From Nemertoderma westbladi (Eukaryota; Animalia; Xenacoelomorpha): a DNA stretch of 64,000 nt. The notes beneath the pieces were generated by a model, which was not told where the DNA came from, did no database searches, and was given only the letters and a program-made list of their open reading frames with translations. The stretch is taken from contig JAUCBJ010006710.1 in NCBI GenBank assembly GCA_032718475.1, positions 1 to 64,000 on the forward strand. Reading direction: 5' to 3'. The position numbers and the translations under genes are program-made. Shown in pieces: positions 27,178-57,120 of this stretch (its first letter is position 1; the number at the start of each line of letters is the position of its first letter).

Positions 27178-27233
27178 GAACTAGAGTAGGTTGGTACTTT
27201 ACTGGCCCTTCCCGCAGGACTCTCGAAGAGAGA

Positions 27234-31429: not shown

Positions 31430-31633
31430 GTCCCCCCCAATGACCTTCGTGAAGTCTGTCGGTCGATTGAGTTTGCGTAGGTCATTCCCAATATAAAAAA
31501 CCCAAATTTAATATTGCATAGTTTTTAATTAATTTGGCCTAGAGTTTGTATAAAAATAAATGTTCGATAAATGTTCCTGGAATATCCCGATCCACTATTT
31601 CTTTCTCTGATACGCCTTTCGTCTCTTCGCCCG

Positions 31634-34077
31634 TCAACTCTCATCGATCGCTATGGCTGGTAGAGGAGCGTCAACATCCATTGTGAGTAACGCTTCGGCT
31701 TGTCTCCTGGCGGCTCTTCCTTTCGATGGCATAGGGATCATGTCGGTTCGTCTTTCCAACTCAGATTTGCGTGCCTCTAGGAACCACTCTCCGTCACCGA
31801 ACTCCTCTTTATACGAGTATAATCGTCTAATGACTTCAAATGGACCGAATAATCCGGCGCTCAGTAGCAGATCCACGTAATGGAAAGGTAGCGTGGCCGA
31901 CGTGTGGAGGCGTTCCGGGAAGGAGAAATACCCGCACGCCATCTCCTGCGCAATATTCCGAGTGTTTCTCCGAACCTTGGTCTTTAAGTGGCTGTTTGCG
32001 TATGTTTCAAAAATGACCATATTTCCCATAGCGGTAACGTCTTTGGTTGGACATTTGATATAGCAGCGGGGGCTAGAGGAATGTCCACGGAAACCGCACG
32101 TGGTGCAGAGGTTATATAGGATCGGACAGACGGAAACGTCGTGGCCCGAAGTCGCGCAGTATGGGCAATAGAGTATCCCGATGAGCTGGAGGCACGAATC
32201 GGTAACCCGATTCCTTCTACCGCGTGGGCACTGCTCCGAACCACAGTCGCCGCATACCTCCAACTGCATCTCTCGACCAGGAAATATCGGAATCGGGACG
32301 CCGACGTGATACTCGAGTCGTCGGTCGCTCTTCGGAATATTCGCGGTGGTCGGTAGCCCGCGGAATGCTAGGCTTTTGCGTAGTAGGTTCTCGCTCCGAT
32401 AACCTTCTTTGTGTCCCGCTGGTCTCAACTCGGATGACCGTTTCTGGCGGTGGATCCATTCAGTTTGCTCGGCGTACCAACAGGTTAGTCGCATAGGGTC
32501 CTGAGGAACGGCGGGTGTAGTAGCCACCGCTGGTCGGCGAAGAGGTGCCGGGGTTTTAGACGGAGGGATACCGAGGAGATCGTCGGGGGTCGGCGCATCG
32601 CTGGGGCCCTCCTCGACCAGTATCGCTGAGCGGGTCCGTTGGTGGCTGGTACTCGGAATCTCCGACGACCAATCTTCGCCACCCGGGAAAGGATACGGGG
32701 ATAACCGTTGGCATATGTCGCCGAAGTTGCTCAATGCAGCTGTAGTGGCTACCTCCCTCGCGGGGCTACCGGAGCCGCGTGGGGTGTAAACGCCTGCTCT
32801 CTTCATCGGTTCGGCCGAGGCAACCCGTTTGGCGGCCGGTCCATACGCGGCCTCCGGCTCGAGTTGTCGCTTCGGGGTGGAGAGTAGAACACCCTCGTTT
32901 AGCCATATCTCTTCCCCTTCCGAAGAGATCAGAGGCTCCTCCGCACTGAGAAGTTCGGTAATCGTAGGGATGTCGTAAGGCCCGCTCTCGTCCCAGGAAT
33001 CGATAACGGCGAGCGTTTTAGTCTCTCCCGGTGCGATGTTCTCGACCGCTTTGAACGCGTGGTGTATGACCTCGTTCCAGTCGTAGTCGACGAAGGAAAG
33101 GGGGACCGCCGTAATAAGGTTATCGAGAGTTTTACAGATAAACTTAGCGACGGTGTAGCACTCCATAACGACGTAAACGTAGTTCCGTCGATCGGGATTC
33201 TCCCACCTTTGGTGTATCGTCCACTTCCGATCAACGTCCTTCCATCGACCCTCTCGCTCGCTCTTTATTTCTAATCCCGGGTATCCACCATATATTTTAT
33301 TATAGTCCCGGAATTTCTGGGGTTTGAAGTCGATACCGCCGTTTAGCACAGCAAGGTAGCCGATCCCGGATTTCGTCGGTCTCACCTCTTGGAATCCTCG
33401 CATGAACTCGGCGAATCGTAACCAGGCTAGTAGCGTTTGAGTGTCGATGCAATGGCTAAGGGTGTTGAGGTCCTCTCGTCGGTTAATTCCTGCAGGAGCG
33501 TTCGCGAAGTCGTTCCGGACGTCCGCCTTGATATCTGACCCGATTTTAATGACGTCGAAGTCGAAGAGGATCTTTTGGATTTCCGCAGGTAGCAACCAGA
33601 TCGCTCCGGCTGCCTGCACTTCCTGTCTGGGTGTCGGGAATATTCGGCACACCAGTACCAAACCGTCCAGGGTTCCGAGGACGACGGCTAAGGATCGACC
33701 ATATTCTTTCGCCCCGTACTTTCCTGGTAGTCGTCTCGGTTCTGGATAATCGATACGCGTTCCTCTCGAAGCGTCGCCGTACACTCCGACAGGTTTCCCC
33801 AGTGGGTGAGGTACGTACTCTTGTCGTCGACGAAACTTTGACATCTCGCCAACGTAATCGCTTTTGAGGTGGGCGTCGCGTTTCCCTCGTTGTCGTAGAT
33901 TAAACATCGGGATCTGTAGACGCTCTGCCGGAACGTTTCCCAAAACGACGAATCGTCCCCTCCGGTTGCCTTTGCGTTCCGAGTTCTTTTCAGTCTCGTA
34001 CTAGCATCGGCTAACCGGAGGGCTCGTAGATTCTTGGAATCCGGTCCCTCTCGCCCGGTGAATTTAATGACTCGCAC
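31634..34077 (-). CDS. Element B accessory ORF: DEDDy-like exonuclease plus Zn knuckles, split by one frameshift
   Basis: LIYDNEG in ORF 33688-34077; LPAEIQKILFDFDVIKIGSDIKAD, CIDTQ, YVVME and CPYC..GH..CPIL..CTTC..GH in ORF 31634-33943. Confidence 0.75.
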
Positions 34078-34744
34078 GTTCTCATTTAGCAGGGTGCTCC
34101 AATTTGTATCAAAGTCAGGGGATCCAGGTTGCGAATATTCCAGTAGATCTATCGTGTTACGTAATTCGCCGATAATTTAGCGATTTGGGTCCATATTTAC
34201 GATTATATTCGTTACAAATTAGATCAGTTAATTATAAGTCCAGAAAGTCTGAAACTATAGCGATAGCAGAATAATTCAGTTTTTTATTTAATTCAGTTTA
34301 TTAATAACATTGCTATATAGGCATCTATCATCTTATTGCTAATACATTCAGCATTTACAGTTACTATAACTATACATTAATATCCAACCAGTTTTTTATG
34401 ACTTTTTTTGTCCTTTTCTTTTTTCCAATTCCTTTCTTTAGACTTTTTTATACCTTTTTTTTGTCTTTTTTCATTTCATTATTATTTCATCTCATTTCAT
34501 TTATTTCCACATATATTTCAACACATTTATTTCCACCATTTATTTCACATTTATTTATTTCCACATCATCATTGGGTTTATAGCCCCCCGGCTATCATCA
34601 TTTGTTATAAGCACAACACCAGGGTGCGCATCATTACATTTTCATCAGTATACGCGTCATCATTCAGGTTTATAGTAGAGTTGTCTGATCCTTTTCATCG
34701 TTTCCAACTATATTCAATCATTTTCTTTGGTTAATCTTTGTCGT

Positions 34745-35175
34745 GGAAGGGGTGTTACGCGGCAATCTGGGATCTACAGCTGGACTCGTTACACCGCCTA
34801 CGCCCCAAACTGCGCACGTAACGGACAATGAAGACGCTAGGAGTGAAGTCACGTGGATGCACCAGGGACCCACCAGAATAACACTCCCAACAACATAAAG
34901 CTCAGTCGACGAAGTCATGTGGGATGGGGTTACGCAACATTCTGGGATCTACAGCTGGACTCGTTACACCGCCTACGCCCCAAAATCCACGCAACGGTCC
35001 CACCAGAATAACGCGACTGAGAAACATAAAACCCTCTATCGTCGAAGTCATGTGGATGCACCATGGACCCACCAGAATAATGGGATAGAGGGGGTGTTGC
35101 GCGGCAATCCGGGATCTACAGCTGGACTCGTTACACCGCCTACGCCCCGAACTGCGCATGCAACGGACAACATAA
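34745..35175. repeat. Three approximately 170-bp tandem units between pol and the accessory ORF of B
   Basis: gggatctacagctggactcgttacaccgcctacgcccc x3. Confidence 0.85.
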
Positions 35176-35443
35176 CATACTGCAATGAATACAATGAATT
35201 CCACTTCAAATCTTTTCCATTTCCAATAATCCAATATCATTGGTCCCGATGACCAAAATCAGGGTAAACAATACATAAACGACCCTGCGTCAGTCGAAAC
35301 ATCTGCAGGGTGATGCTGGACTCCACATAACACACGAGGAAACACAAATACCATTGCGTGGTTACAGTTGGTTTAAGGGGGGTCCATAATTCGTTGTCGA
35401 TAAATCACAGTTAAAAAGAGTTTGTCAACATGATGAGAAGGGT

Positions 35444-38147
35444 TTAAACGCATTTGTAATTGTCACCAATGTCCACAGCAGGATCTTGAGTAGGGATCTT
35501 ATCACCTCTCGTAGAATCACCGCTATCATTGCCTTCAAGAAGGCACAGCCTCTGGATAGGGCGTTGGTAGTGGCCCGATTTCGTTCGTATCGTCACAGTC
35601 CTCGCAAGTCCGTCTTTGCTTGGGTGTATGGTCACGACCCGCGCCACAGGCCAGTGAACGCGGTCTTTGAGATCTTCTTTAACTAGTACCATGTCACCAA
35701 CTGCGACGTTCCGGTAGGTGTTGTTCCATTTCCTCCTGGTCCGGAGGGTTATGAGGTACTCCTGGGCCCAAATCTCTTTTCTCTTTCTCTCTTTCTCCTC
35801 CCACAAAGTTTGTACCATTATCGGAATACATGTGGCGGCATGTCCCATTGTTCGCCACGAACCGACGCAGAGCGTTGATGAATGCGTGTTGTGTCAGATT
35901 TACCACGATATCTAGGTAAATTGCCCTAGACCTTAGGCAGGTGAAGATGGCTCCCCAGCATTTGATGTTGGATCGTCGTTCAATAACCGTGAACGGTCCG
36001 AAACAGTCCACTCCGGTGGCGTAGAATGGTGGGGAATCCGCTTGTAGATGGGTGGCTGGTAAGTCGGCCATCTTTTGGGTGATTGGTGGCGCTAGGTAAC
36101 GTCTGCAGGTGAAGCAACGTTTCAACACTTTCCGGATCAGTGGCTGGATGTGGGTGATCCAATATCTTTGTCTTATATTAGCTATAATCCAATTCTGTCC
36201 TGCGTGGTGGTTGTCCTCGTGACATTGTAGAATTAATAGCTTAGCTAGTGTCGACGTTCCGGGCAGAAGCGCCGGGTATTTAACCTCATATTCGACCGGG
36301 GCATTTGCCATCCGGGTATTCAGTCGGATCAGTCCGTCCTCTCCCATCATTGGTCTCAGTTGGTGGACTGGGCTGTCCGGTTTCAACGTTTTGCCCGCAC
36401 TAAGTTGTTCCCATTCGTCGGGGAAACTTTCTTTCTGGACATATCTAACAATACACTTCTCCGCGATAATGAGTTCTTGTATATTCCGTTGAACTATCGG
36501 TTTGTTGTTTTTCCACCGTAGGAAGTTGCGAAGGGTTATAACGTGATGGACGAGCCGTCTCATGGATGAAGTTCGCTCGATCAACCGATGTAAAGACGCT
36601 GCTAGTTGAGTGATCGTCGCGACGTTATAGTGCCTGCCCGAGTCCTTTGCAGGCTCAGTCAGACAACTATAAATTTCCACCGCGTTGCTTCGATGGATTT
36701 TACGGATCTCTTTATCGTCCTCGGAGTATTTTCCGCTATCGAGCTCGGGGTCGAATCGGGTACTCCATGTTAATTGTGGCTGCCGTAGGAATTCCGGGCC
36801 TGTAAGCCAGAGTTTACTTTTACCGAGTTGTTTTGGGGTGGCGCCTCGGCTTGATAAGTCCGCTGGGTTTTCCTTCCCGTTCACGTGATGCCACTGTTCT
36901 CGGCCGGTACACTGTTTAATCTCCGTGGCTCGGTTTGCAACAAACGTGGTGTGACGCTGTGATGGAGAGTGGAGATAATAGAGAACTATACTCGAATCTA
37001 CCCAGAAGTGTTGAGATTCTATGGGGATCCGTAGGTTCCGCATGACCATGCGATTCTGTCTTACTGCCCAAACTGCAGCTTGTAGCTCGAGTCTCGGAAT
37101 CATTGCTACGAATTCCCCGGATACTGTCTTTGCTTTGGAGAATAAGAAGCTTGTATCGCCGTTTCCATCGTTACTTAGTCTCCGTAAGAAGGTGACTACG
37201 CCGATTCCGGTATTCGAAGCATCCGAAAAGGTATGGAGCTGGAAGATATCGGTGGGCAGTTTATCGAGGAAGAACGGTCTAGGTATCCGCATAAGATGTA
37301 GGTGTTCGAGCTGCTCCGTCCATTTTCTCCATTTGACGCTGAGGTATGGGGGGAGCTCTTCGTCCCATCCCAGTCCTTCTATCCACATTTCCTTAATCAG
37401 GTTCATTCCGGCCAAGGTTACTGGAGATATGAAATTTAGTGGGTCGAAGATGGCGCTTTTTATCGACAAACATCCCCTTTTTGTCATAGGCTTGGGTAGG
37501 GGTTTATACTTGAAGATGAATTCATCTGATTCTATGTCCCATTCAATCCCGAGTACACGATGTTCCACATCCTCCGAATACATTTTGTTATTTTCCAGCC
37601 GGATGTCCTCCGGAAACTTTTCCATAAGTGTTTTGTCGTGGGATCTGAACTTCACGAGCGGAAACCCTCCTTTCTTTAGACATTCTACCATCCCCATTGC
37701 TAGCCGATATGCCTCATCCACATTATCCGCACCGGCGCATCCGTCGTCCACGTAGAAGCATCGTCGAATGGTTTCTATGACGGTTGGAGGGAACTCGTTT
37801 TCGCACATAGTTGCCGTCCTCTTTAGCATGTCATTGCATGCTACCGGCGAGTCCTTAGCGCCGAAGATCCTGACGACCATACGCATTACGTCTACGTCCT
37901 TTATCGTGAGTTGGCTAATCTCCTGTTGAGTAAGCGTTTTATCCGTCCATAGGATACGTAGACAGTCCGAGTCTCTTGGTAACGTACGAACTTGATGAAA
38001 CATGGCCTTGATGTCACAGGTGAATGCTACCCGGTTTTCCCTGAACCTGATCAATACGCCAATGAGTGTGCTATATATGTTGGGTCCCGTGTAAAGTTGA
38101 CTGTTTAGGGATTCGCCCTGGTACATAGCGGCAGCATCATTTACCAC
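35444..38147 (-). pseudogene. pol: Element B Pol (RT, RNase H, integrase); integrase core partly deleted with a frameshift near 35790
   Basis: YVDD, LHTFSDAS, IPRLEL, NPADLSSRG, HH..CC, GVDCFGP, SDNGTNFVG; tail IWAQEYL...RPIQRLCLL is in another frame. Confidence 0.92.
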
Positions 38148-41100
38148 TCAGATTTTCCCACCTTTGCGGGCTTCTACTACATAGTGGGTTGGGAGGTAAT
38201 ATGTTCTTTTACCACCTTGCAGTTCATTCCATGGTACCATTTCTGCTAATCCATCATCGAGATATCCTTGGATTACGGTATTATATTTCTCCTTTATCTC
38301 GGGTTGGTCATTCAGCCGGCGTAGAATCCCTTTAAGTCGCCTAAGTGCCATGCTGGTGTTGTTTGCCATTGGTTTGTTTGGGTCCTTCCATAACATAGGT
38401 GAACACCAGTGTCCGTCTTTAAACGTGGCCTGGTCGAGAACGTCCATACAATATTGGTCCTCTTCGGATGGGTTTTCGTCCTTTTCCGCGAACTCCTGGG
38501 TCTCCAAATTAAAATATTTCGTCATCTCTCGTTGGGTTTTCTCGGTTTCCAGAAACAAATCCTTGTCAAAATCCGAAGCTGAGCAATAACCCACGGAGGT
38601 TGCATTCTCTTTAATCTGGCATTTGGGAAGGTAGGTATAGGTGTCTGTAGTTTCCTCCTTAATGCCGCAGAGTGTCCATCCCATTATTGTTCGTTCAGCA
38701 TAAAATCCGTCATCCTGGTTTATAGATCGGGCGATATCTCCGGTGGGGATGTGTAGTTCCGGTGTATCAAGTCCGATCAGTAGGGTGATGCGGTTTACGT
38801 CCAACTGCGGACACCTCAGGTCTACATCGTCTCGGTCCAATTGTATGAGGGGGGCGTACTCGGCTGATTGTCGGAACCGCACCCGGAGGTCTGTGTGTAC
38901 CAAGGCGTTCTTGATGGTTAACTTAGCCGTTTCGTAGCCCTTCATCACTCCTTCCATCTGGAGTTGCACCTCCCCGGACTCTACCTCTCTGTTATCGGTG
39001 ATGGTTTGTATGGGCCGTTTACAAGGTTCATATTCTAGGCCGAGTTGCTCAAGGAAATCCCGGTCGATGATGGTTCCGTCGGACCCGTTATCGAGGAACG
39101 CGAGTGTCGTCAAAGATTTGCCGACTCCTTGGATCCTTACTGGGATTACCTTTGCGAAGACCATGTAGCGGCGATTTATAAGATTGATCGTGGCCGAAAT
39201 ATTTGTTACTTGTGGTGTATCGGTGGAGATTTTAAACGGGTTGGTTTCTCTCCGTTGGGTTGTCCGGGTTCCTTTGAAGACGTGGTTTGTTTCTCCTCTT
39301 CGCCTGGCTTCGATCCGAAAGGGGAGGGTAGTAAAATCGAAGTTCGCGGGGATGTGGAGGAGCGTGTGATGGCGTTGGTCGTTACAGACAGCACAGCATG
39401 ATCTTTGGTCGCACTCCCGAACATAGTGACCTGTTCCAAGACACCGGAAGCATCCTCGGTGTTTCATTATCGCCTCGAAGCGTGGGACGAGTTCGGCGAA
39501 CTGAAACTTTCTGCAGAATTCCACTTTATGTTTCTCCCAACAGAAGAGACAGAGCAGGGAATTTGTGATGCCTTCCCTTTCGGGTGCCCAACTCGCGAGA
39601 TAACATGCCCATTCCTCGGCGGATGTCGGCTCCTCGTAGTCTTCGTCGTCGGAATCCTCGGCCATGGTGATGGCCATCGTACTCACCGGTGGGGGGCGGA
39701 ATCTCGGTTTCGGAGGGGTTATCTTACTCCTGGAGTTGCTTTCTATTCCGTCCAACTTTGCGAGACTCTGTTTTGAAAACATCAAGTCATTCATGGCTTC
39801 GGAGATATCGTCCAGGAATGCCGACATTTCAAGGAAGCTAGGATCTCGATCTGGATGTCTGCGCCGGAGATCTACACATTTATAAGCCCACTTACTTTGT
39901 AGCCATCCGGGGAACTTCCGGGCGATCCGTCGGAGGTTTAGAATGTTGTTCACCTGGTCCTCCTTATTTAAGGGTTTCAGAGTATAGTAGGCATCCTTCA
40001 TAGAGTCGGAGAATTCCTGTATGTTCTGTGGGTCCCCTAGTGATCCCGCGTCCTGTATCAGTCTCTCTAGAGTTTTATTAATTATAGTTCCGGTATTTCC
40101 GTATCTTTTATCTAGAGTTTTCCATGCGTCATAGTATGCCTCATGAGAACCTCCTTCAAAACATGCAATAATTCTGCGTGGTTTGTCACCCAGGTATTGC
40201 GATAAATATACCAATTTCTGTGCGTCGGCTATGTCCGTTGATCCGATCTGCGCAAAGAACCGTTTCTTGAATCTGAGGTAATCGACGGGATCTCCTTCGA
40301 AGGTGCGAATCTCCATCTTAGGCATGGCAAGGCGGTTCTCCAACGCCCGGATGATGCTGACGTCGTCTGAACTAGAGTGACTCGGAGGGTTATAGTTATT
40401 GGCACTCACTCCCATACTTGATGGATCAATAATAGGTGGAGTTTTAATAATGACGCGGCTACGAGTTTGTGGTGTGGATGTAAATGGGTTGTTAGATCGG
40501 GGAGTGGCGTCCCGTTCCGAGTCCCTTTCAGGCTCGTACTTGGGTACACTCGCTGTCGTGGTGTTGGATGGGAAATAAGGTTCCTCATTCTTTAGCGTAG
40601 CCGGTGGGGGATGGAACACCGGGGCTTGTGCCGATAGCGTAGACTGTTTGGTAGGCGGGATCTCGGGTTTCGGAAGTTTCACCGCTGTTGGTGTAAATGA
40701 CTTTTCTAACTCCGGTACCGGGATTGGTTCATATTCCTGATCTATATCCCTTTCCCAGTCCTCGTAGAGTTGAATATCTCGTTCTATAAGTGCGGCTTCG
40801 TATTCCGCGAGTTTTGCAATATCCGCATTCTTTTTGTGGATGAGAATTGCTTGGGCCTCGGCGTGTTGTTTACTCATTTCTGCTTCCCATTTACGTTGTT
40901 CGATCTCTCGTTCGGCCTCTCGTCCGCGTTGTTCGGCCTCCTGTTTGCGTTGTTCGGCCTGTCGTTCGTCCTCTCGTCTACGTTGTTCGATCTCTCGTTC
41001 GGCCTCTCGTCCGCGTTGTTCGGCCTCCTGTTTGCGTTGTTCGGCCTGCCGTTCGTCCTCTCGTCTATGTTGTTCGGCCTGCCGTTCGTCCTCTCGTTTA

Positions 41101-41891
41101 CGTTGTTCGGCCTGCCGTTCGTCCTCTCGTCTATGTTGTTCGGCCTCCTGTTCGCGTTGTTCGGCCTGCCGTTCGGCCTCTCGTCTATGTTGTTCGGCCT
41201 CCTGTTCACGTTGTTCGGCCTGCCGTTCGGCCGCTTGTTCGGCCTCTCGCTTTTGTGTTTCGGCGGCTAATACATCTTGCTCGGCTTGCAGTTGAATATA
41301 CTCATCTTCCATCCGAGCTTTGAGGGCTAATGCCTTCCGTTCTCGGAGTTGGTCTCGGAGTGGCGGCGCCCCTTGAGAACTGCGCGCTGATCCGGATATC
41401 TCGCTCCTAGCGCTGGAGTGCTGATTTCTAGCGGACCCCGTTCTCTTTCGATGTACTGCTGTCCTGATGCTGGAGGATCGTACCGATTCCGCATCTGTTC
41501 TTTCGGCCCTCTTGTAATACTGTTCTTCATAGCCTCTCACAAGGCTGAGGGTCCTCCGGTGTTGTTTGCGGAACCCATCTAGATGTACAACGTGTTCTTC
41601 CAACTTGGGGTAGTTTTCCTGATCAGTGGAGGGAACGAGCTCTTGGTACGCCTGTATCATTCTTTCGTACCGCTGTAGGATATTTCGGATACTTTGAAGC
41701 TGAGTTTGTACCTCATTGAGGGGGGTTTTGACTCCCTTGAGTTGTTTCTCCATCCGTTGATACGCTCGGGTTACTCCCCCTTTGAGAGCCCCTAGCCGAC
41801 GGGTCATGTTCTTGACGTTTGGTACCTCGTCGGCTTCCGAGTCTGTGTGGTGATCCATCTCGTCGGTATCGGATACGTTATTTGTCGTCAT
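38148..41891 (-). CDS. gag: Element B Gag-protease-RT start, ending at an in-frame TGA
   Basis: E/R/Q tandem coiled coil; FEGDPVDYLRF..QKLVYL..RYG; three knuckles; FLDNGS; GGKI*VVNDAA replaces the expected KIRVV. Confidence 0.92.
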   Translation of the reverse strand: MTTNNVSDTDEMDHHTDSEADEVPNVKNMTRRLGALKGGVTRAYQRMEKQLKGVKTPLNEVQTQLQSIRNILQRYERMIQAYQELVPSTDQENYPKLEEHVVHLDGFRKQHRRTLSLVRGYEEQYYKRAERTDAESVRSSSIRTAVHRKRTGSARNQHSSARSEISGSARSSQGAPPLRDQLRERKALALKARMEDEYIQLQAEQDVLAAETQKREAEQAAERQAEQREQEAEQHRREAERQAEQREQEAEQHRREDERQAEQRKREDERQAEQHRREDERQAEQRKQEAEQRGREAEREIEQRRREDERQAEQRKQEAEQRGREAEREIEQRKWEAEMSKQHAEAQAILIHKKNADIAKLAEYEAALIERDIQLYEDWERDIDQEYEPIPVPELEKSFTPTAVKLPKPEIPPTKQSTLSAQAPVFHPPPATLKNEEPYFPSNTTTASVPKYEPERDSERDATPRSNNPFTSTPQTRSRVIIKTPPIIDPSSMGVSANNYNPPSHSSSDDVSIIRALENRLAMPKMEIRTFEGDPVDYLRFKKRFFAQIGSTDIADAQKLVYLSQYLGDKPRRIIACFEGGSHEAYYDAWKTLDKRYGNTGTIINKTLERLIQDAGSLGDPQNIQEFSDSMKDAYYTLKPLNKEDQVNNILNLRRIARKFPGWLQSKWAYKCVDLRRRHPDRDPSFLEMSAFLDDISEAMNDLMFSKQSLAKLDGIESNSRSKITPPKPRFRPPPVSTMAITMAEDSDDEDYEEPTSAEEWACYLASWAPEREGITNSLLCLFCWEKHKVEFCRKFQFAELVPRFEAIMKHRGCFRCLGTGHYVRECDQRSCCAVCNDQRHHTLLHIPANFDFTTLPFRIEARRRGETNHVFKGTRTTQRRETNPFKISTDTPQVTNISATINLINRRYMVFAKVIPVRIQGVGKSLTTLAFLDNGSDGTIIDRDFLEQLGLEYEPCKRPIQTITDNREVESGEVQLQMEGVMKGYETAKLTIKNALVHTDLRVRFRQSAEYAPLIQLDRDDVDLRCPQLDVNRITLLIGLDTPELHIPTGDIARSINQDDGFYAERTIMGWTLCGIKEETTDTYTYLPKCQIKENATSVGYCSASDFDKDLFLETEKTQREMTKYFNLETQEFAEKDENPSEEDQYCMDVLDQATFKDGHWCSPMLWKDPNKPMANNTSMALRRLKGILRRLNDQPEIKEKYNTVIQGYLDDGLAEMVPWNELQGGKRTYYLPTHYVVEARKGGKI

Positions 41892-42329
41892 TGTAATGCC
41901 TCGTCGATAGCTAGATACGCGATGTCATAAAACAGTTCCTCGTAGGTATTGTACTCAGCTTGGACCACCCGAACGGTAATCCTGAATCGTCCGACGTTCG
42001 TTCCTTGTACTTCAACTTCGACGTGCCAGATTCCTGGCTCAACTTGGATTATATCAATGGGTGTGATCGATACTTCCATTCCCTGTTAACAACTCTCCAA
42101 ATATGTGATCTGCCGACTACGAGTTGGTTAGATCGAGTTTGTTGATTAATTAAACCACGACTTTGTCTCAACTCAAATACCAGAGTTTCCTCGTAGTGGG
42201 TGCTGGCAAGCACGTAGAGAGTTTTGAAGAGTATTGAAGGATTCTCAACTTCCACCAGTTGAAGTTGACCGTAATTATTCTTAATTTTGACACCCTGTCA
42301 AAATTAACCGCATTAATTATTCTTAATTT

Positions 42330-43949: not shown

Positions 43950-43954
43950 TCTAG

Positions 43955-46919: not shown

Positions 46920-49882
46920 ATGACGGAGTTGATAGAAGATGATCTTGGTATTAGGGAGCGATATACTCTACCTTTACAAGCATTTGTGGATAGCTTAATA
47001 CGCGGTGAAGCCGATCCAACCATTACGGAGGACGATGGTCGTTATATCGAACTGCCGATGTCCCAAGAGCAACTTGCGCGTGAATTGGACTATCGAAAAT
47101 TCACCACTCGCTATATGAATCGTAATGGTACGTATATGGACTTCTTAACTACCGGCCATCCTATTGATTTACATGATACGGACGATGTAGATACAGAGAG
47201 GGAAATGGTTCTATTTAAATATCATACCCAGCTGAGTCGTAACGATAAACCGAGAATAGATCACGAAAATTCTATTCGTAATAGACTGGAAAGAGAAAAC
47301 GTTGAAGAACCGGATAAACGCATCGACTTCAACGAATACCTAGAATTTTTGAGAGAAACCTATCTCAACATCGCTAGTCAGCAGAACTTAGAGACTCAAT
47401 ATCCTCAAGGTATACATCACGACCCTGTGGTAGAACTCAAACGGCTCTATTTCACTATGATGTATCTTACCGCCGATCGTCCACTACCTGTTATCCCGGA
47501 TAGTTTTGAACAAATGGAAGAATATTGCAAAACTGGAGAACGTTCACCCGCGTTTCCTCTACAGGACGTACGTCTTTGGTATTATTGTGACGAATGCCCT
47601 AGACCCAACCAACAAACTGAAAGACACAAACATCCGCGGAGACGTTGCGCTAAACACAGTTTTACGCGTTACACTTACGGGAGTTTCGAGCGAAACCTGT
47701 TCGACGTACCACCTACGATCGCTCGTCTTAAACGATCACTGAATAAACCCATGATCAGAGTTCCGGAATACTCGGTCAGGTCTCCTCATTCCCTAGTGAG
47801 ACCTCAAACTCTTGATCCTAACAGTATCACTGATCCTCCCGAACTATATTCCCTGTTCAAAGACTTAGTGTTACCCGAACAATTAATCGGTGGTGCTCCG
47901 GTAGTGGGTTCGTTAGACATTCGCCCATCCTACTTAGCCGGATTGGGACGCGGGCAACTAATATCGCCCTTTGATCCTTACAATCGTCCAGGATTAAACC
48001 CGATGCAACCCGCCACGGAAGTCGAGGAGAGCGTTATAAGAAACGCTTTAGACGCCATTCGACAGAAAATCGGAAAGGGAACACAAGATTGTTTAGAGAA
48101 ACGTAAATTACAACAACAAGTCCAATCGGTGAAGGAGTTAGCCTTGCCACAGTTCGATAGAGAAATCCAAAACCTCGAGGAAGACATCGAGCTTGGACGC
48201 ACGTATTCTCTACAAGAATTTTTAGATGAACGCTTACAGAGACAAGCGGAAGAAAATCTACTCGAAGAGAAACACACGAAACTGGAAGAGAGAGAAGAAG
48301 CCGCTTTAGCCCAACCGGAAGCTCAAATCCTCATGACGGACCTCTACTCTAAAACCGTTCGTCATCCCTCGATGATTCCACATTTCGGGGACAAGCTCTT
48401 CGCGACGATACAACCTCAACCGGTTGATATCAGTACAGGATCGCAAAATCTTATCGCTGACGCCCCTATGTTACAGCGTCCGCCGATCGAGGCCACTCGT
48501 GTTGACGGTATACTCGTTGAACCTCCGGACAATCGAGCGGATCTTGTCCGTCGTATGGTACACGATGTCAACATACGCGCTAGACCTTTACAGAACTCGT
48601 TTTATGGGATTAAAGACCACCCTTATTACGTTAATCTGACTCAATATTATATGGTAAAACCAGAAGACCCGACACATAATTTAAAGTTTCTACCACTAAT
48701 AAATCCTCTAGACATTGTCGAACTCGAACAATTGCAGAAACATCTGGATCAGTTAGTAAAGGTAAACTCATTTAGAAAACCATATAACATTTCTCGAATC
48801 GAGAAAGATATAGAACCTCCTTATAATCTCGATGGATTTATTAAAACTCGATTAGTCCATTGGAATCTAGATGTATTATTTGAAGAAGAGAAAATACAAA
48901 GATATGGAAATGTGGAGACGTATACCACTCGGCACATGAAGTATAGTGATCTCCCTGACGCTAACCAATGCGCCACCTTGTGGCATCCAGTAGGGATGAC
49001 CCTAGAGAACGCCACCAAGGAGTGGAATGAAACTCTTAATGTTATTGAGATGTATGGAGTTGTCACCTACGATAATGAAGGTAGCGTTCCGGTCGGAGAA
49101 CTAGGAACTACGCGCATGATCCACATACGCGGATTAGCTGGTTCTACCCACGTGTTTACTCGAGCGTGTTCCGACGTGATTGATTATTCTTTTGAAACTC
49201 TCACCGAAACACAAAAGAATCTCCGACATGGACAATTCGAACTCGCGCAGCGTTACGTCATTGACACCGAACGCAAACCGGCCATGGGCATCGATGGATC
49301 GATGTTACCCCAGCCCGTACTCGAGATGTTGTTCAACGAAAGAATCCTTAAAATCGGCTCAGCTGTTTATGGAGATCTCCAAAGCGACTTTCGGAATATG
49401 GAGAACATTCCATACCCTTTCGTTGATACTCAGCTGATTGCTCCCTGGGCAGAAGGTCGAGGTTTCTTCCTCACCATGTATGCTAATACGTCTAGCAACA
49501 TTACAAAGGTGCAACGAACTTCCATCGGACATCTTGCCTTTCAGGAATACGGATGGAATTTCAAAGTCGGAAATCCCACTAACTATCAACAAGTATACGG
49601 AGACCATTATTCTCGATTATACTTTGATGGACCATTGACCGCACCTGGCGCCGTGTATAGCTTCATGAGTGTTCCACTCCGTCCCTCCTTAGCTATATAC
49701 ACGATCTTTGAAAACACCGCACTTGCTGGTTGGCTAGCCGATGTGTGCAGTCGTACCATACGCGCCCATCCATTAATACTTGGGACCAAACTCGCTAAGC
49801 TAGATGAACATAATAAATTCATCCGTTTCGAATGTTTCCGGCGATTTTTAACCCCGTTCCGCAACATGGATAGCCAATTTAA
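46920..49882 (+). CDS. Element A accessory ORF, 5' part (long N-terminus plus DEDDy-like exonuclease)
   Basis: VVTYDNEG, LPQPVLEMLFNERILKIGSAVYGD, FVDTQ, SIGHLA, PLRPSLAIYTIFE. Confidence 0.78.
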
Positions 49883-51435
49883 CCCTATTAAACCCGGGGG
49901 GGGGTCAATATGACCCCCCCCCGTGGTTTTTTTATTATAATTCTGAAACAAACGCAGTTGGGAATCTGAAATTGTATGACTTTTCCTAAAAATCTATTGT
50001 CTTCCTAGTAGTGAAAACCGTTTTCAAAAATATTGGGTACTTTTCGAGTTATAGCACCATTTTTTAACCCTACTTTCGGCACTTTTTTTGAGACGTTTTT
50101 TGAAAATTACATTTCATTAAATATGAATTGTAACATCTCTATTTTTGATTTACACCGGTTTTTTGGTGTTAGAAATTTGATGGAATTCATATAAATTGAT
50201 TTAGAAATTTCAAACTTGTTTTTTTCGGTGGGTGCCAAATTTTGGTGCCAGCACCAAATTTTGAAATAAGTCAATTTTGTAAATTGATCGTTTGAAACTT
50301 GTTTTTTACGCAATTGGGGTTTTTTGGGTTTCTGGATTCGATGAAATATATACGAGTTGCACCAAGCGTATCAAACTTGTATTTTTCGGTGCTGTGTGCA
50401 AATTTTGGTGCTAGCACGAAATTTTGAAAATCCATTCAATAGATAAAATTGCTTGTGTCAATTTATTTCTTGCGTTTTAGAGGTTTATGGCTGTTCTGAA
50501 TTCAATGGAAAATATAATTATCGAACTAGACATCTCAAACTTGTATTTTTCGGATGTGGGTGCAAAATGTGGTGCTAGCACCAAATTTTGAAAACCATCA
50601 GATATATAAATTGATTGTGTCACCTTATTTCTTGCGTTATACGGGTTTGTGATGGTTCTGAATTCAATGGAATCAGTAAAAATTTCATAAGAGTTCTCAA
50701 ACTTTTATTTTTCGCCGGTGGGTGAAAATTGTTGTGCCAGCACCAAATTTTGGAAAATATGCAAATTGATAAGTAGATAGTATCACCTTGTTTCTTGCGT
50801 TATACGGGTTTATGAGGGTCCTGAATCCGATGGAATCAATAAAAACAGCACTGGACATCGCAAACTTGTACTTTTTGGTGATGGGTACGAAATTTGGTGC
50901 TAGCACCAAAATTTGCCAAATTTCGCCGAAAAATACAAGTAGCAATGATCTGGTATATTAGAAATGTATTCCATTAGAATCAGCGCCCTCGAAAACCTAA
51001 AAATGTGAATTTATAGCATCGTATATGTGAATTAAAAATTTTGTGTTCTAACTGAAAAGTGCTGGTTACTTGTTTTTTTCATTTTTTTCCTACGCAGAGA
51101 GGACTAAACAGCCATTTATAGTAATCATATCATTTTTTAATATTTTCCAATGTATTTTGCACCCCAGAAAACCTGTATTGAAAAATAATTAGCCGAAAAT
51201 GTAACTTTCAAATTTGGTGAAAATTGTGCACTACTTGTAAGTTTGGTGCTGCAATATAACCACCCCAGTACATTTTTTCGAAAATTTTTTTTTTCGGTCG
51301 GATCCAGACAAGTGATACCTACGTACAAACAAAAAATCAGACGTTTTCGTAAATATTTGTAGATTTTAGAGGGGGGGATCAATATGACCCCCTCCCGGTA
51401 TTTGTACAACATTTTATAGCCCGGTACTAATAGGG
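49883..51435. mobile_element. Non-autonomous piggyBac-like element (1553 bp)
   Basis: TTAA at 49879-49882 and 51436-51439; termini CCCTATTA...TAATAGGG; subterminal ggggtcaatatgacccc-type palindromes; internal units of about 165 bp. Confidence 0.9.
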
Positions 51436-51439
51436 TTAA

Positions 51440-52730
51440 AGACCGCGCTTTGACCAAGCTCAGCCTAAGAAACTCAGCTGCAGAGAAGTTGGATAGCGCT
51501 GGATTCGCCGTTTTCCAAGAGATTTGTATATCGAACTTGCACTCCTCTGTTATACAAAGACCTCGAATCCCCACAGGTTATTCTGTCGTGGAAATTCAGA
51601 CAATAGGTCCACCTGAAGAGACAGACGCGCCCACTTCAGCTATGCACTTGGAAGACGAACCAATATGTCTAGAATCTGAAGAGATTCAGCCTATCGCGCC
51701 CCGGAACAGCGACAACGATTACATCATAGAATGGTATCAAGGTCCACAGTGTCTCACTGCGTACGATTATCGACATGCCAACTATGTTTCTAGGCAACGT
51801 TGTCGGTTATGCGCATCGAGAGACCATGATACGCCCATGGACACCAACGTCCGCTGTTCCTATTTCCAAGAACAACCGACTATGGAAATTTATTGCGCAT
51901 ATTGCAGACTCAATAACTTGCATATCTTTGCGGTTTGCCCTCAATTTATGACTCAATGTCACCATTGTCAACTAAAGGGACATGCCAGTTTCGATTGCCC
52001 TTTTAATCACGATTTGGAAAGCGTAGATGAAATGATCACACTACGTTACATCAGAGCTTGGGAAGCGAACGCTGATTTACATTGTGATTCGCGCCATCGC
52101 TATTATCCCGGACGCGCTTACGAAGGAGTTTATGCGTTCCATCCTTATCTATTCGCTTCGGTCGAACAGAAATCACGCATATCGAGTTACGAGCTACTGA
52201 AGCGCGTCGGAGAATGTATTTCAACCAAATTCGTACGCAAATTTCTCAGGAGTGTTAATCCTAGCGACCTTCATTCCTATAACTTAATCAATTATATCCG
52301 TCAGGATCCGGACTATGGAGACTTGTTTGTTAACTCACACCCCGAGTTACAGGAAGTATATCGACGGCCTTACGAATACCGAGCCCGCGAACGCGAGTTG
52401 GAAAGAACCATTAAACCCCGGAGGTTTCTAACTGCCTATGGTCCACCCACGGCCCTCGTTCAGACCACTCGTAAAGGACCCGTAAGAGCGGCTGTCTTGA
52501 AACGAGCTCTCAAAGCCGTTAGACCCCTCTCCCCCGACGTTGATGTCAATCAACCCGGTACTTCGACTGGCGGATACACCGACCATAATCCTACACCCTC
52601 TGATGCAATCATATTGCACCCTTCACCCAGAAGTTATAGCCCTCCTTGTAAAGTGGCTCGCCCCAAGGAGAAAAGGACTCTGGCTAGCTTTAAAAAACTG
52701 CGTAAACGCCGTCCGCGCAAGAAAGACTAA
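51440..52730 (+). CDS. Element A accessory ORF, 3' part (three Zn knuckles and a basic tail)
   Basis: In frame with 46920 once the MITE is removed (1417 aa total); CRLC..H, CAYC..H..CP, CHHC..GH..C. Confidence 0.8.
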
Positions 52731-52808
52731 CTGTTTAGAGTATTTACATATATTAGAAACTGTGATTTTTGTATATTTATAAACTTGAATCCCATTTTCT
52801 GGGAGCGG

Positions 52809-54016
52809 TGTAAAAGCTTTTGCGGATATACTCAGTCCCCCTCGCCCGCAAGGTACCGTTATAGGTGTTTTAACGGACATAAAAGTCATTCTTCTATATA
52901 CGTGCTTTGGAGGACATGGTAAGGCAAAAAACCCGCAATGCACCAAATACCCTTGCACAGCTTAGCCTTGATGATTCAGATTACGACATCTAACAGCTGG
53001 TTGCTGACATGGAAACGGCCATTGGACACATGGTTCTTTGTTTGCTTAACAGCCAATCAGAGCGATTTTTTCTGTCGATGTGGAGCCTTTTAGCAGATCA
53101 TGCTAGGAGTGTTCAGTCTTACTGTTTTTCTTGATACTGTTGTGTTGTTTCTATCTAGGCCAGGAACACCGGCTCTAGAGTCAATTCGTTTTCATACTTT
53201 AGAAGAAACATTAGTAGGCTTAAATTATAGAGCGTATAACTGTTATCATAACATAACAATCAGTGCATAACAATCGGTGCAACTCCGTTCAGTCTTGCAT
53301 TATCGGTTCAACATACATTGTTGTGCTGCTGTTTGCTGTTGTCATATTTTGTATCAGTTGGTTGAATATTATTTGGAGAACATCTATAAAGAACCCAAAT
53401 TTCCCAATTTTCTTGATACACTACAGGTTAGAGAGACGGGTTATATATAGCGATTGCGACTTATATTATTGTGGTTTGTAGTGAATTTAATGCTATTTGA
53501 TAAGCACTACATGAGTCAGTTGCTGTTCTCTTTATATATGATAAAATTCATTGACGGTCGGCAAATTAGTGAGCAGTATTGTGTGTTACCGGTAGTGTGC
53601 ATGATTGTGGCTGATAACTAAGCATTTCCTAAAGAATGCGCCTCATACGTGAATCATAAGCCTTACCGACTTACCGTTGTGATTAGTATAAGTCATATCT
53701 CTGTTTACCTAGATAGAGCGCCACGTCCTAAAGGAACTGTTAATATTTCCCGAAAGTGAATAATATTAGTCAGAAATTATTTATTAACGATCAATCGAAT
53801 AATACAGTAAGCTTACACTGCAATAATAATCTAAGCCCTCAGAATCCAGTCTCCCGGGTATATCCAGCGGGTGAATGGACGCGCACTAGGCTGGCTTCTG
53901 CTAATGTTGTGTTTATTGGTATTAAATATTTGTCAACTTCTAAAGTCTATTTGTAAACCAAAAGACATATAAATTTTGGCAGGTTAAACTGCTAAAGGTC
54001 TTCAAAAGCGCGTACA
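52809..54016 (+). repeat. Element A 3' LTR (1208 bp), preceded by PPT gggagcgg
   Basis: TGTAaaagctttt ... aaaagcgcgTACA imperfect terminal inverted repeat. Confidence 0.92.
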
Positions 54017-54646: not shown

Positions 54647-57120
54647 ATGAGGGGATACTACGAGCGGTTAGAGAGGGGTCACAAAGCGCGAGCGCTGCAG
54701 GACCATTTCAGGGAGGTGCACGAACAGTGGCTGGTCGGGACCTACGGGACATCGTCGCTAGACAACGCAATCTTCGAGCATTTCCACTACGTGGTGAAGG
54801 GAGACGAGGCGAAGTTCGGGATACCGAAGTATCCAAAGGAACCACCGAGAAAGGACTGGAAGAGGCTCGAAGAGTCCGTCAGCAGGGGAGGATACATGGT
54901 CGTAGACGATGAGGGGACCGTGGAGGATGAGGAAGGTTCGAGGAGAGGGTGGGCGGGGTCAGCCAGAACCATGCTCCTACATTTGGCCACGCCAAATGGG
55001 GACATTTTCCTGTTCGACCTGGGAACGTATGGGAAGAAGAACGGGCCGAAGTTGAACCGGTTGCCAAAGTCAGTGCAAACCCTAGTAAGAGAGAAGTCGA
55101 CGATAAAGGTGGGATCGGCGATCCGCGACAATGCGGAGAGGATCATCGGTCCGGAGACCCCCAACCTCCTGGACATGCAGACGGTCTACATGGCTATGAC
55201 AGCGCCAGACGGGTTGGGACTAGTAGAGAACGCAGGCCATTGTGGAGCGGTGGCGATGGGCCAGCTAATAGGGCTTGTCTGTCACAAACCAATGGACTGG
55301 AGTAAATTCAGAGAGGAGTACGGAGTGGAGTTGGCGAACTCGCTGAAGTGGGGAGCGAGACCAGGGAAGCAAGAGGTGTATCAATTCCGGAGCGGAGCGA
55401 TAAAGGTATATCAGAAGCGATATATCCTGCAGGAGGACTGGATAATGATAGGTTTGCTAAACCTATTCATGAGCGTGGTAATCGAGAGAGAACCAACAGC
55501 ATTCCTGCTATCGGGATCACCACCGAACTACAGAGAGCCTTCAAAGTGGCTTTCGAGGGTCTGGTAGACCACCCGGGGCTGAAGGGCGAGTCGGTATACT
55601 ATAACTGCCGATATCTAGTAGACGGGGAGGTGGATACGCCATATCAGAGGTGGGAGCAGCTAGAGGCGGATAGACGAGAGGCGAAGCGATTGGAAGAAAT
55701 CGCTAGGCGAGAAAGGAGGGAGGCGGAAGAAAGGGAGGAGGAAGCTAAAAGAGAGAGCTATGGATTCGAGGAACAGGTGGCCTTAGATGAGCTGCACTGG
55801 ACATCAGGGAGTTCAGGTGAGTCTCTAGGGCGAGAACTGGGGTGGACGGTGGGATCACCGAAACAGTCGACATTGGGATTGCAGACGAAGCCCATACCAG
55901 CGGGCGCCGAGGGCGATTTCACGCAGAGGAGGCCAGGGGAACTTGAAGGATGGAGAGTCACAGGCGAGAGCCAAGGTGGGAAGGGTCATAGTGGATCCAC
56001 CGGGATACCGGGATTGGACCCACTCGCAGAGGAGGACGAGGATGACGACGAGTTCGGAGAGATGCCGCCCATCGGGAGAATCGGCCACTCGGATACGGAC
56101 TGGGTTGGCGGGAGGGTGGTGACGGCCAGCGGGGCGAGGGCCTTCTGGGATAGACCCGGCAAGCGGGCCTGGGTGCATGAGGAGCCGGCGATGGATTTCG
56201 CGGGGAGCACCATCAGGTTGGGCGTGCAACCGGGGCTGGCACCACGGGTAGTATTCGGAGAGACGATGCCCGGGCGGGGCGAGGAGATAGACGTGGACAG
56301 GGACGCTAACGTCCAGAAGTTCGCTTACCAGCGACTCCACAGACCGAGGAGAATGCTTGGGACGAAAGACGACATGGGGCGGGAGGCATTGGTACTCGGC
56401 TGCGATTACTGTGGGAGGCAGACTCACCAGGAAAGGAGCTGATTGTACCGATTCCAGAAAGGGACTAGTTGTCTCTACTGCCGCGAGTCAAGCCACAGGA
56501 TGGGGGCGTGTCCACGGTTGCACAACCGGTGTTCTAAGTGCAACTTCAGGGGGCACTACAGACGCCAGTGCGACTGGATGGACGACGAGGAAAAGTTTAG
56601 GATTTTCGAGGAGTGGGCCGATGTCGGCGCTATGACCCGACAGCAGATGAAGGCCCAGGAATTCCGGTGGGGCTTCTTTAATATCAACCAGGAGGCCCAC
56701 CTGGAAATCATTAAACGGAGACTTCCGTTTACTTATCAGGAGGTGTCAACGGCGGCGTCGTATGCCGGAGTGATAAATACGCAGAGATATCTGGACAGGT
56801 GGACGCCACAGAACCGAGGAGAGTTCAGAGATTTCTTGGCGGAGCATGTGCCGCGGGCTATGAAAGTGATCCTATGGGACGCCACTAGGGGAAAACAACA
56901 GGGCCATTCCGAGGGGCCACCCGAGAATCGATACCGGGAGCTGATAACACCAGCGCCCAAGGAGTCGACAATGGGAATCAGTAGAGAGGTGACGGCGAGG
57001 GTCAGGAATCTGAAAGGGGATAAGAGCAAGGGAGCGGCAGCGACCAGGAAACGACCGAGGGAGGAGGACGACAGAGGGAAGGAGTTGAGATGGTTCCCAA
57101 AGTTGGGTGGAACGAACTAG
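54647..57120 (+). pseudogene. Element C accessory ORF: DEDDy-like exonuclease plus Zn knuckles (frameshift near 55515, TGA at 56440)
   Basis: MVVDDEG, LHLATPNG, LPKSVQTLVREKSTIKVGSAIRD, LLDMQ, RYILQED; CLYC..H..CPRL..CSKC..GH..C; FEEWAD..WGFF. Confidence 0.78.

Follow-up and report, generated by a model that had tools for sequence, protein, structure and literature searches.

A predicted DEDDy-type exonuclease with three zinc knuckles encoded downstream of pol in Bel/Pao elements of Nemertoderma westbladi and related loci

According to earlier descriptions, the third genes of Bel/Pao elements are env-like and their function is unknown; these elements typically also have a tRNA primer-binding site behind the 5′ LTR (PMC8742986). 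In bdelloid rotifers, the DEDDy ORF3 of Juno/Vesta has also been found in Athena/Terminon elements, according to the available text of that study (Rodriguez et al., 2017; PMC5408684). As far as the available text on the trypanosome protein TbRND goes, it is a precedent for a single-stranded RNA trimmer that joins an exonuclease to CCHC fingers; the fingers grip the single-stranded RNA, and the authors call the combination very unusual (PMC7797062). A literature search revealed no published case of a DEDDy ORF3 in Bel/Pao. The analysis given here points to a deep Bel/Pao lineage in which a third gene, downstream of pol in the place normally held by a viral envelope gene, would code for a DEDDy exonuclease-fold domain followed by three zinc knuckles. 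The gene, its position, two-domain architecture and catalytic-type residues, its co-inheritance with pol and the purifying selection acting on it were observed directly, and we regard them as practically certain. The novelty implied by the original prediction for a DEDDy ORF3 in LTR retrotransposons does not hold, as such an ORF has been published for Juno/Vesta in the part of the rotifer paper available (PMC5408684).

The window, i.e., the whole stretch of DNA analysed, comprises positions 1–64,000 of the forward strand of contig JAUCBJ010006710.1 of N. westbladi (GCA_032718475.1). Element A lies on the plus strand. Its 5′ LTR (20332..21502) differs from the 3′ copy by one mismatch over 1172 nt, is devoid of the first 37 nt that the latter has, and adjoins a truncated PHD-endonuclease LINE fragment; the 5′ LTR being clipped, a target-site duplication is not checkable. 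The gag-protease frame (23398..27177, +) matched DUF1759 (E 5.2e-12), and an Asp_protease_2 match was below the cut-off (E 0.018). The RT-RNase H frame (27153..29809, +; Peptidase_A17, E 1.2e-35) is broken, carrying a frame change as well as an in-frame stop, and is interrupted by the insertion of element B, beyond which lies the integrase (43950..45290, +; Integrase_H2C2, E 2.7e-8; DUF5641, E 8.5e-20). The first part of the accessory gene (46920..49878, +), with a start codon at 46920, codes for an N-terminal extension of ∼680 residues without a Pfam match and then the DEDDy-type domain (∼49020–49780). It is followed by an AT-rich, non-coding, TTAA-bounded insertion of 1.56 kb (49879..51439, unstranded) with inverted ends and internal ∼163-nt repeats, which we take, from its TTAA/CCC-end features, to be a piggyBac-like MITE; it was missing from contigs crossing the A site in four of four runs. 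The second part (51440..52730, +) carries the linker, three zinc knuckles, a helical module and a basic C-terminal tail. A purine tract (52801–52808) and the 3′ LTR (TGT…ACA, starting at 52809) complete the element (52801..54016, +).

Element B lies on the minus strand between a 5′ LTR (42330..43949) and a 1620-nt 3′ LTR with internal ∼95-nt repeats (29810..31429), which is preceded by a G-rich purine tract; the LTR pair differs by 12 mismatches, and the target duplication is 5 nt (TCTAG). Its gag-pol (35444..41924, −; DUF1759, E 1.5e-14; Peptidase_A17, E 3.7e-37; Integrase_H2C2, E 1.2e-8) has a stop within the RT reading frame, and its integrase has lost an internal segment. The accessory gene of B consists of an upstream frame with ExoI (33688..34176, −) and a main frame (31634..34000, −), which runs from the second strand of the exonuclease to ExoIII (YVVME) and continues into an acidic linker, three zinc knuckles and a helical FExxA module. 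Locus C shows an exonuclease piece (54647..55567, +; start codon at 54647) with VDDEG, KVGS and YILQE, a linker with the first knuckle in a different frame, ending in a stop (55306..56442, +), and a piece with knuckles 2 and 3 and the helical module (56443..57120, +). The prediction of a single large ORF in each copy was thus incorrect: A is split by the insertion, B has ExoI in another frame from the rest, and C comprises three pieces and shows both a break of frame and an in-frame stop.

DUF1759 and Peptidase_A17 were above cut-off in both A and B and DUF5641 in A, and the C-terminus of the B integrase matches that of A. Both elements show the Gag-PR-RT-RH-IN order with Bel/Pao-specific pol domains, an LTR pair and a purine tract, and the target-site duplication is seen in B. 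Comparison of a pol profile with 1511 frames found no pol piece near C, a 60-codon stretch after the A LTR giving a weak match (E 0.38), and C has no LTR pair within the window. Hence, only A and B are shown to be Bel/Pao; the assignment of C as a third such element and its supposed placement between pol and a 3′ LTR were not confirmed. The claim of unrelated LTRs stood for A against B, which gave no blastn match. In A and B, no TGG occurs within 20 nt downstream of the 5′ LTR (related loci have TGGCGCC); lacking the tRNA primer site, the two are therefore Bel/Pao-type by pol and not formal Semotivirus members. A pol scan of viral contigs yielded no named Bel/Pao reference for an RT phylogeny. 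The sizes are ∼18.0 kb for A without its inserts and 14.1 kb for B.

The predicted motifs were all found in place: YDNEG at 49068, KIGS at 49350 and VDTQ at 49422 in A; YDNEG at 33897, KIGS at 33547 and IDTQ at 33448 in B (minus strand); VDDEG at 54902, KVGS at 55106 and LDMQ at 55169 in C; and the ExoIII-like YxxxE with the Cys/His knuckles in all three. BLASTP aligned A with B in the exonuclease (E 1e-7) and knuckles (E 4e-6) and C with B in the knuckles (E 4e-13); the exonuclease pairs A–C (E 0.19) and C–B (E 3.1) were not significant. In leave-one-out HMM tests, the third piece scored above all 2000 shuffles in six of six domain tests, and the separate ExoI piece of B was equalled by 1 of 2000. 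The three frames are homologous in both domains above chance, as had been proposed for a common accessory gene. A Pfam scan of the six window frames of this gene gave no match. A 19-residue hydropathy scan of the accessory frames detected no TM segment, the highest value (1.95, in B) falling on a stretch aligned with a predicted β strand; with a predicted exonuclease fold and no TM-like segment, the product is not env-like, in agreement with the original prediction.

At 50% identity, the family forms 43 clusters or more. With the exonuclease part alone as profile, 43 proteins were detected; 27 of these also match the knuckle profile, as do 26 of the 29 that are at least 500 aa long. The knuckles (28 rows) show 8 invariant and 4 near-invariant columns of the Cys/His/Gly ligand pattern, and they follow the Cx2Cx4Hx4C type with canonical spacing in P0001 and variant spacing in others. 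The Atlas zf-CCHC score of 0.87 is a lead only, and the sole Foldseek rows for the knuckle module were TbRND and NC (E 2–8). RNA binding through the knuckles is predicted. In P0013, a Bel/Pao gag-protease is fused to the exonuclease-knuckle protein. PF01612 was detected in 5 of the 43 proteins and exceeded the cut-off in two, including P0042, which looks like a cellular outlier. The K[KR]x[KR] nuclear motif occurs in 15 of 24 linkers against 5.3 expected, and nuclear import via this basic motif is predicted from the sequence.

Thirty related loci were found through the accessory gene itself. Same-strand gag or pol lies upstream in 25 of them (Bel/Pao pol in 23, gag only in 2 more); in the other five, less than 200 nt precede the gene in four, and L026 gave no match. 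Peptidase_A17 was present in 10 of 10 pols scanned. The window holds three decayed representatives, and intact ones occur in the related loci: an intact accessory gene adjoins uninterrupted gag-pol in L003, L012 and L014, and related intact units span ∼9–10.5 kb (L006, L010, L021). Pol proteins of gene-carrying elements are ∼30–40% identical, and pol and exonuclease distances are congruent (Mantel r 0.89, n 18). The exonuclease dN/dS was about 0.054–0.102 in the six closest sister pairs, as low as that of pol (0.07, L007/L009). These results agree with the claim of an old, selected gene linked to Bel/Pao elements. AG|GT…AG inserts occur at one codon position in nine loci; the six measured are 113–168 nt long with a GC of 0.39–0.50 against 0.58–0.66 in the flanks. 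Linker inserts in four more loci bring the intron-like inserts to 13 loci, which implies a spliced mRNA.

The family profile (44 sequences) matched EXD2 (E 6.5e-17), WRN (1.4e-5), Egalitarian (3.5e-4) and TbRND (8.4e-4). The AF2 model of the A domain (pLDDT 71.9) aligned with NrnC, among the matches listed (Z 12.7, rmsd 3.8, 163 aligned), and with WRN (VIA Z 12.2, rmsd 3.9, 167 aligned); the 50 structure matches listed are 3′–5′ exonuclease-domain proteins. At a threshold of E ≤ 0.001, Foldseek returned nothing for the fold (best match 4.2e-3). The C exonuclease piece fell in ESM Atlas PF01612 clusters (score 0.94). A DnaQ fold is thus predicted from modelling, and the DEDDy-type assignment, closest to EXD2/WRN/Nibbler, agrees with what had been foreseen. 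ExoI D and E are each kept in 41 of 44 rows (3 gaps), ExoII D in 40 and ExoIII Y in 42; the last acid is D in 31 and E in 11, the latter in the window's clade, including A, B and C. ExoI and ExoII are complete in A, ExoI of B is in the separate frame, and C is ambiguous at ExoII, with Asn in that column and Asp one residue earlier. Catalytic activity may be altered owing to the Glu in the window's clade and the Asn of C. Loss of catalytic acids of the Egalitarian/EXD1 type was not seen across the 44 rows, and metal-dependent nuclease activity is likely.

The proposed explanation is that the accessory protein, probably made from a spliced mRNA, is likely an active 3′–5′ RNase, which would likely degrade RNAs that trigger or guide host silencing and so protect the element. 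As a whole, this reading of a spliced-mRNA-made RNase shielding Bel/Pao is put at a little short of even, and splicing and the anti-silencing target, taken jointly, are somewhat less likely than not. In the available text of the rotifer study, DEDDy ORFs are common to LTR and Penelope-like elements with different replication (PMC5408684), a pattern that speaks for a benefit not bound to the chemistry of replication; the lack of a clear link between ORF3 and copy number reported there counts against protection (Rodriguez et al., 2017; PMC5408684). A more elaborate version, in which an old, widespread, complex-retrovirus-like Bel/Pao lineage deploys a spliced, nuclear, knuckle-guided RNase against small-RNA precursors or guides, is unlikely on balance; introns would stay in the genomic RNA and occasionally be lost when the spliced form is reverse-transcribed (L017). 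The sister-pair dN/dS gave no hint of an arms race, and values as low as those of pol fit a housekeeping replication role equally well. Such a replication helper, loaded by its knuckles on genomic RNA in the particle and trimming primers, RNA 3′ ends or mispaired cDNA ends (RT proofreading), is also rather unlikely. It would accord with the finding that in close pairs the gene is as constrained as RT/RNase H, with its agreement with the pol tree, with the same fold in polymerase proofreading domains (Klenow, Z 11.4) and with the resemblance of CCHC knuckles to nucleocapsid fingers. A and B exceed the 4.2–10 kb range of the ICTV profile (PMC8742986), and 3′-end processing was proposed for rotifer DEDDy ORF3s in the text available (PMC5408684), both in its favour; however, intact related units are just ∼9–10.5 kb, and the gene is separate, apparently spliced and outside Gag-Pol. 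Since its carriers include elements that have a TGG-type primer site (related loci) as well as elements that lack it (A, B), the gene is not tied to a single priming mode.

A nuclear EXD2/WRN-like nuclease processing cDNA ends or aiding integration-site repair is improbable. EXD2 and WRN act on DNA and were the top sequence matches, and NLS-like motifs are enriched in the linkers, but the Bel/Pao integrase should suffice for end processing. Moreover, three CCHC-type knuckles indicate single-stranded RNA, following the TbRND precedent as far as the available text describes it (PMC7797062). Similarly improbable is a non-catalytic adaptor that, like Egalitarian, EXD1 or retroviral Rev, would bind element RNA for export or localisation, although Egalitarian and Exd1 are among the profile and structure matches and the last catalytic Asp is replaced by Glu in the window's clade. 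Complex retroviruses do have spliced accessory proteins with an NLS that work as RNA adaptors. Retention of ExoI D/E, ExoII D and ExoIII Y in 40–42 of 44 rows at ∼20% overall identity is, however, expected only if catalysis is selected, and Egalitarian-style transport, raised in the original prediction, fits poorly with this conservation. EXD1 and Maelstrom are catalytically inactive derivatives in the available rotifer text (PMC5408684), which also counts against an adaptor. That the frames are a functionless captured host fragment or unrelated chance motifs has a negligible probability: all three window copies are broken and BLASTP gave significance to one exonuclease pair out of three, but 43 homologues of like architecture, dN/dS near 0.05–0.1 and the intact gene beside uninterrupted gag-pol in three loci refute it.

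If the anti-silencing reading is true, an animal LTR retrotransposon would encode an enzyme that acts against silencing, which bears on whether animal retrotransposons actively counter small-RNA silencing. The gene defines a Pfam-invisible protein family with a single fixed architecture, distinct from the env-like third genes of Bel/Pao. It offers an assayable enzyme for the question of why retroelements repeatedly capture DEDD exonucleases, the naturally intact copies (L003, L012, L017) making biochemistry directly testable; the intron-like inserts bear on the balance of spliced and genomic RNA in LTR elements.

Compared with Belpaoviridae, the elements share the gag-PR-RT-RH-IN order, LTRs and a third gene located after pol and before the 3′ LTR, but this gene codes for a predicted soluble nuclease and not env, and A and B are above 4.2–10 kb and lack the tRNA primer site (PMC8742986). 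EXD2, the WRN exonuclease and Nibbler (Mut-7) of PF01612 have the same ExoI–III layout, including the LP..v..lL....i.KvGs.I..D segment; these are cellular enzymes without the knuckle module, whereas the present family is mostly below Pfam detection. TbRND (PDB 7C42/7C45) similarly has a DEDD 3′–5′ exonuclease and C-terminal CCHC fingers, but is, in the available text, a cellular enzyme that trims gRNA in trypanosomes and has four fingers and a 28-residue linker in place of three knuckles and a long linker (PMC7797062). The analogy is loose owing to the long acidic linker here against the short one in TbRND, and the likeness is probably convergence since the two resemble each other weakly (E 8.4e-4, Z 10.2; E about 2 for the knuckle module). 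Juno/Vesta, as far as described in the available text, similarly carry a non-env, RNase D-like DEDDy ORF3 downstream of pol without TM (PMC5408684). Unlike Juno/Vesta, the carriers here have pol domains of the Bel/Pao type; in addition to the exonuclease, their protein has three zinc knuckles and a helical module after a long linker, and some lineages carry intron-like inserts. The motif here is DEDD or DEDE against DEED in the rotifer paper, and the gene has been inherited together with pol; for the rotifer ORF, the available text describes at least two acquisitions (PMC5408684).

The window is composed of transposons nested in one another. Element A (20332–54016) has LTR copies differing at 1 of 1172 nt, a gag-protease region (23398–27177) and an integrase region (43950–45290); its RT-RNase H region is broken. 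Element B (29810–43949, minus strand) sits in the pol of A and has 1620-nt LTRs with 12 mismatches and the target duplication TCTAG. Bel/Pao-specific Pfam domains were found in both A and B, and each contains an extra sense-strand gene between pol and the 3′ LTR. A third copy of this accessory gene, C (54647–57120), is located downstream of the 3′ LTR of A, with no pol detectable nearby and no LTR pair in the window. The original prediction had described three Bel/Pao elements; owing to the missing pol and LTR pair of C, a Bel/Pao carrier is established for A and B only. The stretch upstream of C, suggested by eye to be a pol remnant, matched the pol profile only with E 0.38, and this suggestion was set aside.

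None of the three accessory gene copies is intact. That of A is split by a TTAA-bounded insertion (49879–51439), that of B has a frame break after the ExoI motif, and that of C has one frame break and one stop. An intron was rejected as the cause of the break in B, its GC content (0.54 vs. 0.52 in the gene) not being intron-like. In the source organism, the A family is highly repetitive: 79,056 contigs of sequencing run X1 match the region, and contigs of all four runs cross the insertion site in A without the insert. Contigs of three of the four runs also join 47288 to 51650, a non-GT-AG deletion removing the exonuclease domain; hence, deleted derivatives of the A family exist. Within the A family, 11 synonymous and 6 non-synonymous differences (binomial p 0.001, tested against 0.27), taken from 17 of 40 listed rows among 1852, lend weak support to selection.

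The LTRs of the inner element B are more diverged (12/1620) than those of the outer element A (1/1172), the opposite of the expected order. This could be due to gene conversion, to renewed copying of the nested unit or to the assembly. The 1.62-kb LTR of B contains arrays of ∼95-nt repeats (30222–31127 and 42742–43647), and a 47-nt unit of these repeats shares 85% identity with the 5′ portion of the B accessory gene (33974–34020; repeat family D14). The A accessory protein has an N-terminal extension of ∼680 residues (46920–48940) that matches no Pfam family and includes a CxxC...H...C/H cluster (frame residues ∼228–251) and a coiled-coil-like stretch; the N-termini of B and C are short. No TGG tRNA primer site was found in A or B, while related loci have TGGCGCC. 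In A, the bases that immediately follow the 5′ LTR (21503–21513) can pair with a stretch of the element's own LTR at ∼20722–20732 (11 nt, offset 0), and self-complementarity of at least 11 nt arose in 9 of 5000 shuffles. In B, ∼42315–42327 is complementary to LTR position 1374 (13 nt, offset 2, four offsets having been tried). This post-LTR self-complementarity resembles self-priming of the Tf1 type. The window, in which no tRNA gene was found, is a dense graveyard of transposons. It includes a fourth Bel/Pao-type element (60564–64000) that leaves the window, with a DUF1759 match in gag (E 3.5e-10) and a change of frame near 62800, several copies of LINE RT fragments (117–1300, 3093–3790, and 59222–59867; 5841–6731 and 12153–12791), a PHD-endonuclease LINE start truncated at the 5′ end of A (19452–20331), and a 900-nt palindromic element (16485–17389).

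The resemblance first noticed among the three accessory frames is real, and larger than could be seen from the window. When each copy was scored against a profile of the other two, it exceeded all 2000 shuffles in six of six domain tests, showing that the frames are homologous. In pairwise alignment, A and B matched over both domains (BLASTP E 1e-7 and 4e-6) and C matched B over the knuckles (4e-13), whereas the exonuclease domain of C aligned significantly with neither A nor B. Pfam recognized no family in the six accessory frames of the window or in six ORF3s of related loci; the ESM Atlas placed the C domain with PF01612 clusters (score 0.94, 25/30 matches).

The DnaQ-type fold that had been proposed was supported by the 44-row exonuclease profile, which matched EXD2 (E 6.5e-17), WRN (1.4e-5), Egalitarian (3.5e-4), and Trypanosoma brucei RNase D (TbRND; 8.4e-4), and by structure comparison (VIA) of the AF2 model of the A domain (pLDDT 71.9, pTM 0.70), with Z scores of 12.7 to NrnC and 12.2 to WRN. 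Foldseek gave no match for this model at E ≤ 0.001, its top rows being Nibbler, NrnC, EXD2, and WRN. An origin from Rrp6 was rejected, as Rrp6 was absent from the 24 profile matches although the fold is common to both (Z 10.4–10.5). The Asp and Glu of ExoI are present in 41 of the 44 rows (three gaps), the Asp of ExoII in 40, and the Tyr of ExoIII in 42. The last catalytic acid is Asp in 31 rows and Glu in 11, among them all three window copies and the five best matches; this Glu in the window clade is a caveat on the predicted activity.

The Cys/His ligands of the C-terminal module are invariant (model pLDDT 76.1). No fold match was found for the knuckle-plus-helix module (best VIA Z 2.4 among 48,161 chains; Foldseek E at least 2.1, with a faint TbRND row), which falls short of demonstrating a new fold. 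Duplication of the knuckles from the element's own Gag NC was unsupported, with an hhalign probability of 25% and HMM scores of at most 5.8 bits.

Searching 1.84 billion representatives with an exonuclease-only profile identified 43 proteins at E ≤ 0.001. The knuckle profile was also matched by 27 of them, and by 26 of the 29 with at least 500 aa, indicating that the combination of the two domains characterizes the family. Protein P0042, which has the appearance of a cellular multi-repeat exonuclease, and the fusion P0013 were excluded from the alignments. Word-seeded protein searches returned nothing for the B query or the knuckle alignment and only P0001, a profile-search protein, itself for the family alignment. 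A PDB sequence search with C alone gave only de novo TIM barrels, metagenome contigs searched with the A domain gave no related locus, and viral contigs gave no match to B, the family alignment or the pol alignment.

A six-protein sub-alignment retrieved 30 loci from metagenome contigs, which belong to one clade from a few related assemblies and were found via the accessory gene itself. In 23 of the 30, the gene is immediately preceded by Bel/Pao pol in the same orientation, and 2 more have only gag, in agreement with the proposed tie to Bel/Pao; in 4, the contig extends <200 nt beyond the start of the gene, and L026 has no match. Peptidase_A17 was found in 10 of 10 pols scanned. In three loci (L003, L012, and L014), gag-pol is a continuous frame of 2139–2402 codons with a single-frame ORF3 behind it, and in five (L006, L008, L010, L011, and L021) ORF3 is followed by a purine tract and LTR. 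Intact family members include the ORF3s of L003 and L017 as well as P0001. Evidence independent of the 30 loci comes from P0013, a Bel/Pao gag-protease fused to the accessory protein. The pols of the related loci share 30–33% identity with those of A and B, which share 40% with each other. L006, L010, and L021 were assembled as circular units of 9.3–10.5 kb (111-nt terminal overlaps); in L008 and L011, ORF3, a purine tract, one LTR, a new primer site, and a long ORF follow each other as in tandem arrays.

Distances of pol correlated with those of the exonuclease (Mantel r 0.89, 18 elements) and the knuckles (0.91, 17 elements), and the main clades are common to the pol and accessory trees, which have no outgroup. 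Exonuclease dN/dS was 0.054–0.102 in the six closest sister pairs, similar to pol where comparable, in agreement with the original prediction of a selected gene. Only close pairs are quoted; distant-pair values (median 0.48, 102 exonuclease pairs; 0.65, 126 knuckle pairs) were set aside as dS was saturated. Together, these results show that the gene is conserved, under selection and linked to pol, and that it combines an exonuclease fold with knuckles.

Nine loci (L018–L025 and L028) contain an intron-like insert just before ExoI, at the same codon position, with AG|GT...AG boundaries; in the six measured, it is 113–168 nt long and has a lower GC content than its flanks. Four others have intron-like inserts in the linker (L007, L009, L010, and L002), GC...AG and 61–68 nt in three and GT...AG and 62 nt in one. 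L017 is continuous without the first insert while its relatives in the trees carry it, which suggests intron loss. The inserts imply, from sequence, a spliced ORF3 mRNA, the introns presumably being retained in genomic RNA. The motif K[KR]x[KR] occurs in 15 of 24 linkers (5.3 expected), an enrichment that suggests nuclear import of the accessory protein.

The accessory protein is predicted to be an active two-metal 3′–5′ nuclease whose knuckles would bind single-stranded RNA, as the accessible text of PMC7797062 describes for TbRND. Its target may be silencing-related RNA, which it would degrade. This is tentatively the favored role, at somewhat below even probability, since the protein seems to be made apart from Gag-Pol and is apparently nuclear, and since DEDDy genes were recruited by retroelements of differing replication chemistry, according to the accessible text of PMC5408684. 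A role in replication, by primer or end trimming or by proofreading, though by itself rather unlikely, is a close second, because the constraint on the gene equals that on RT and there is no sign of an arms race. DNA-end processing is improbable, and a non-catalytic adaptor, in place of the predicted active nuclease, slightly more so.

For Bel/Pao, no genes other than gag, pol, and env-like ones are given in the ICTV profile (PMC8742986). In their accessible text, the word "exonuclease" is absent from the Bel/Pao survey PMC3118150 and from PMC13524379 and PMC12451622, and PMC3286476 and PMC3985635 contain nothing on a Bel/Pao exonuclease. No report of such a gene was found in the open literature, a scope lying outside Repbase, GyDB, non-open papers, and supplements. 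The suggested novelty apparently stands for Bel/Pao and falls for the kind of gene: the accessible texts describe a DEDDy ORF in Terminons (PMC6431247) and a DEDDy ORF3 in the LTR retrotransposons Juno and Vesta of bdelloid rotifers (PMC5408684; restated in PMC5718144). Hence, the Bel/Pao accessory proteins apparently form an undescribed family of an already known kind, with a predicted function. As in Juno and Vesta, a DEDDy ORF3 is carried by an LTR element, but the carriers here are Bel/Pao.
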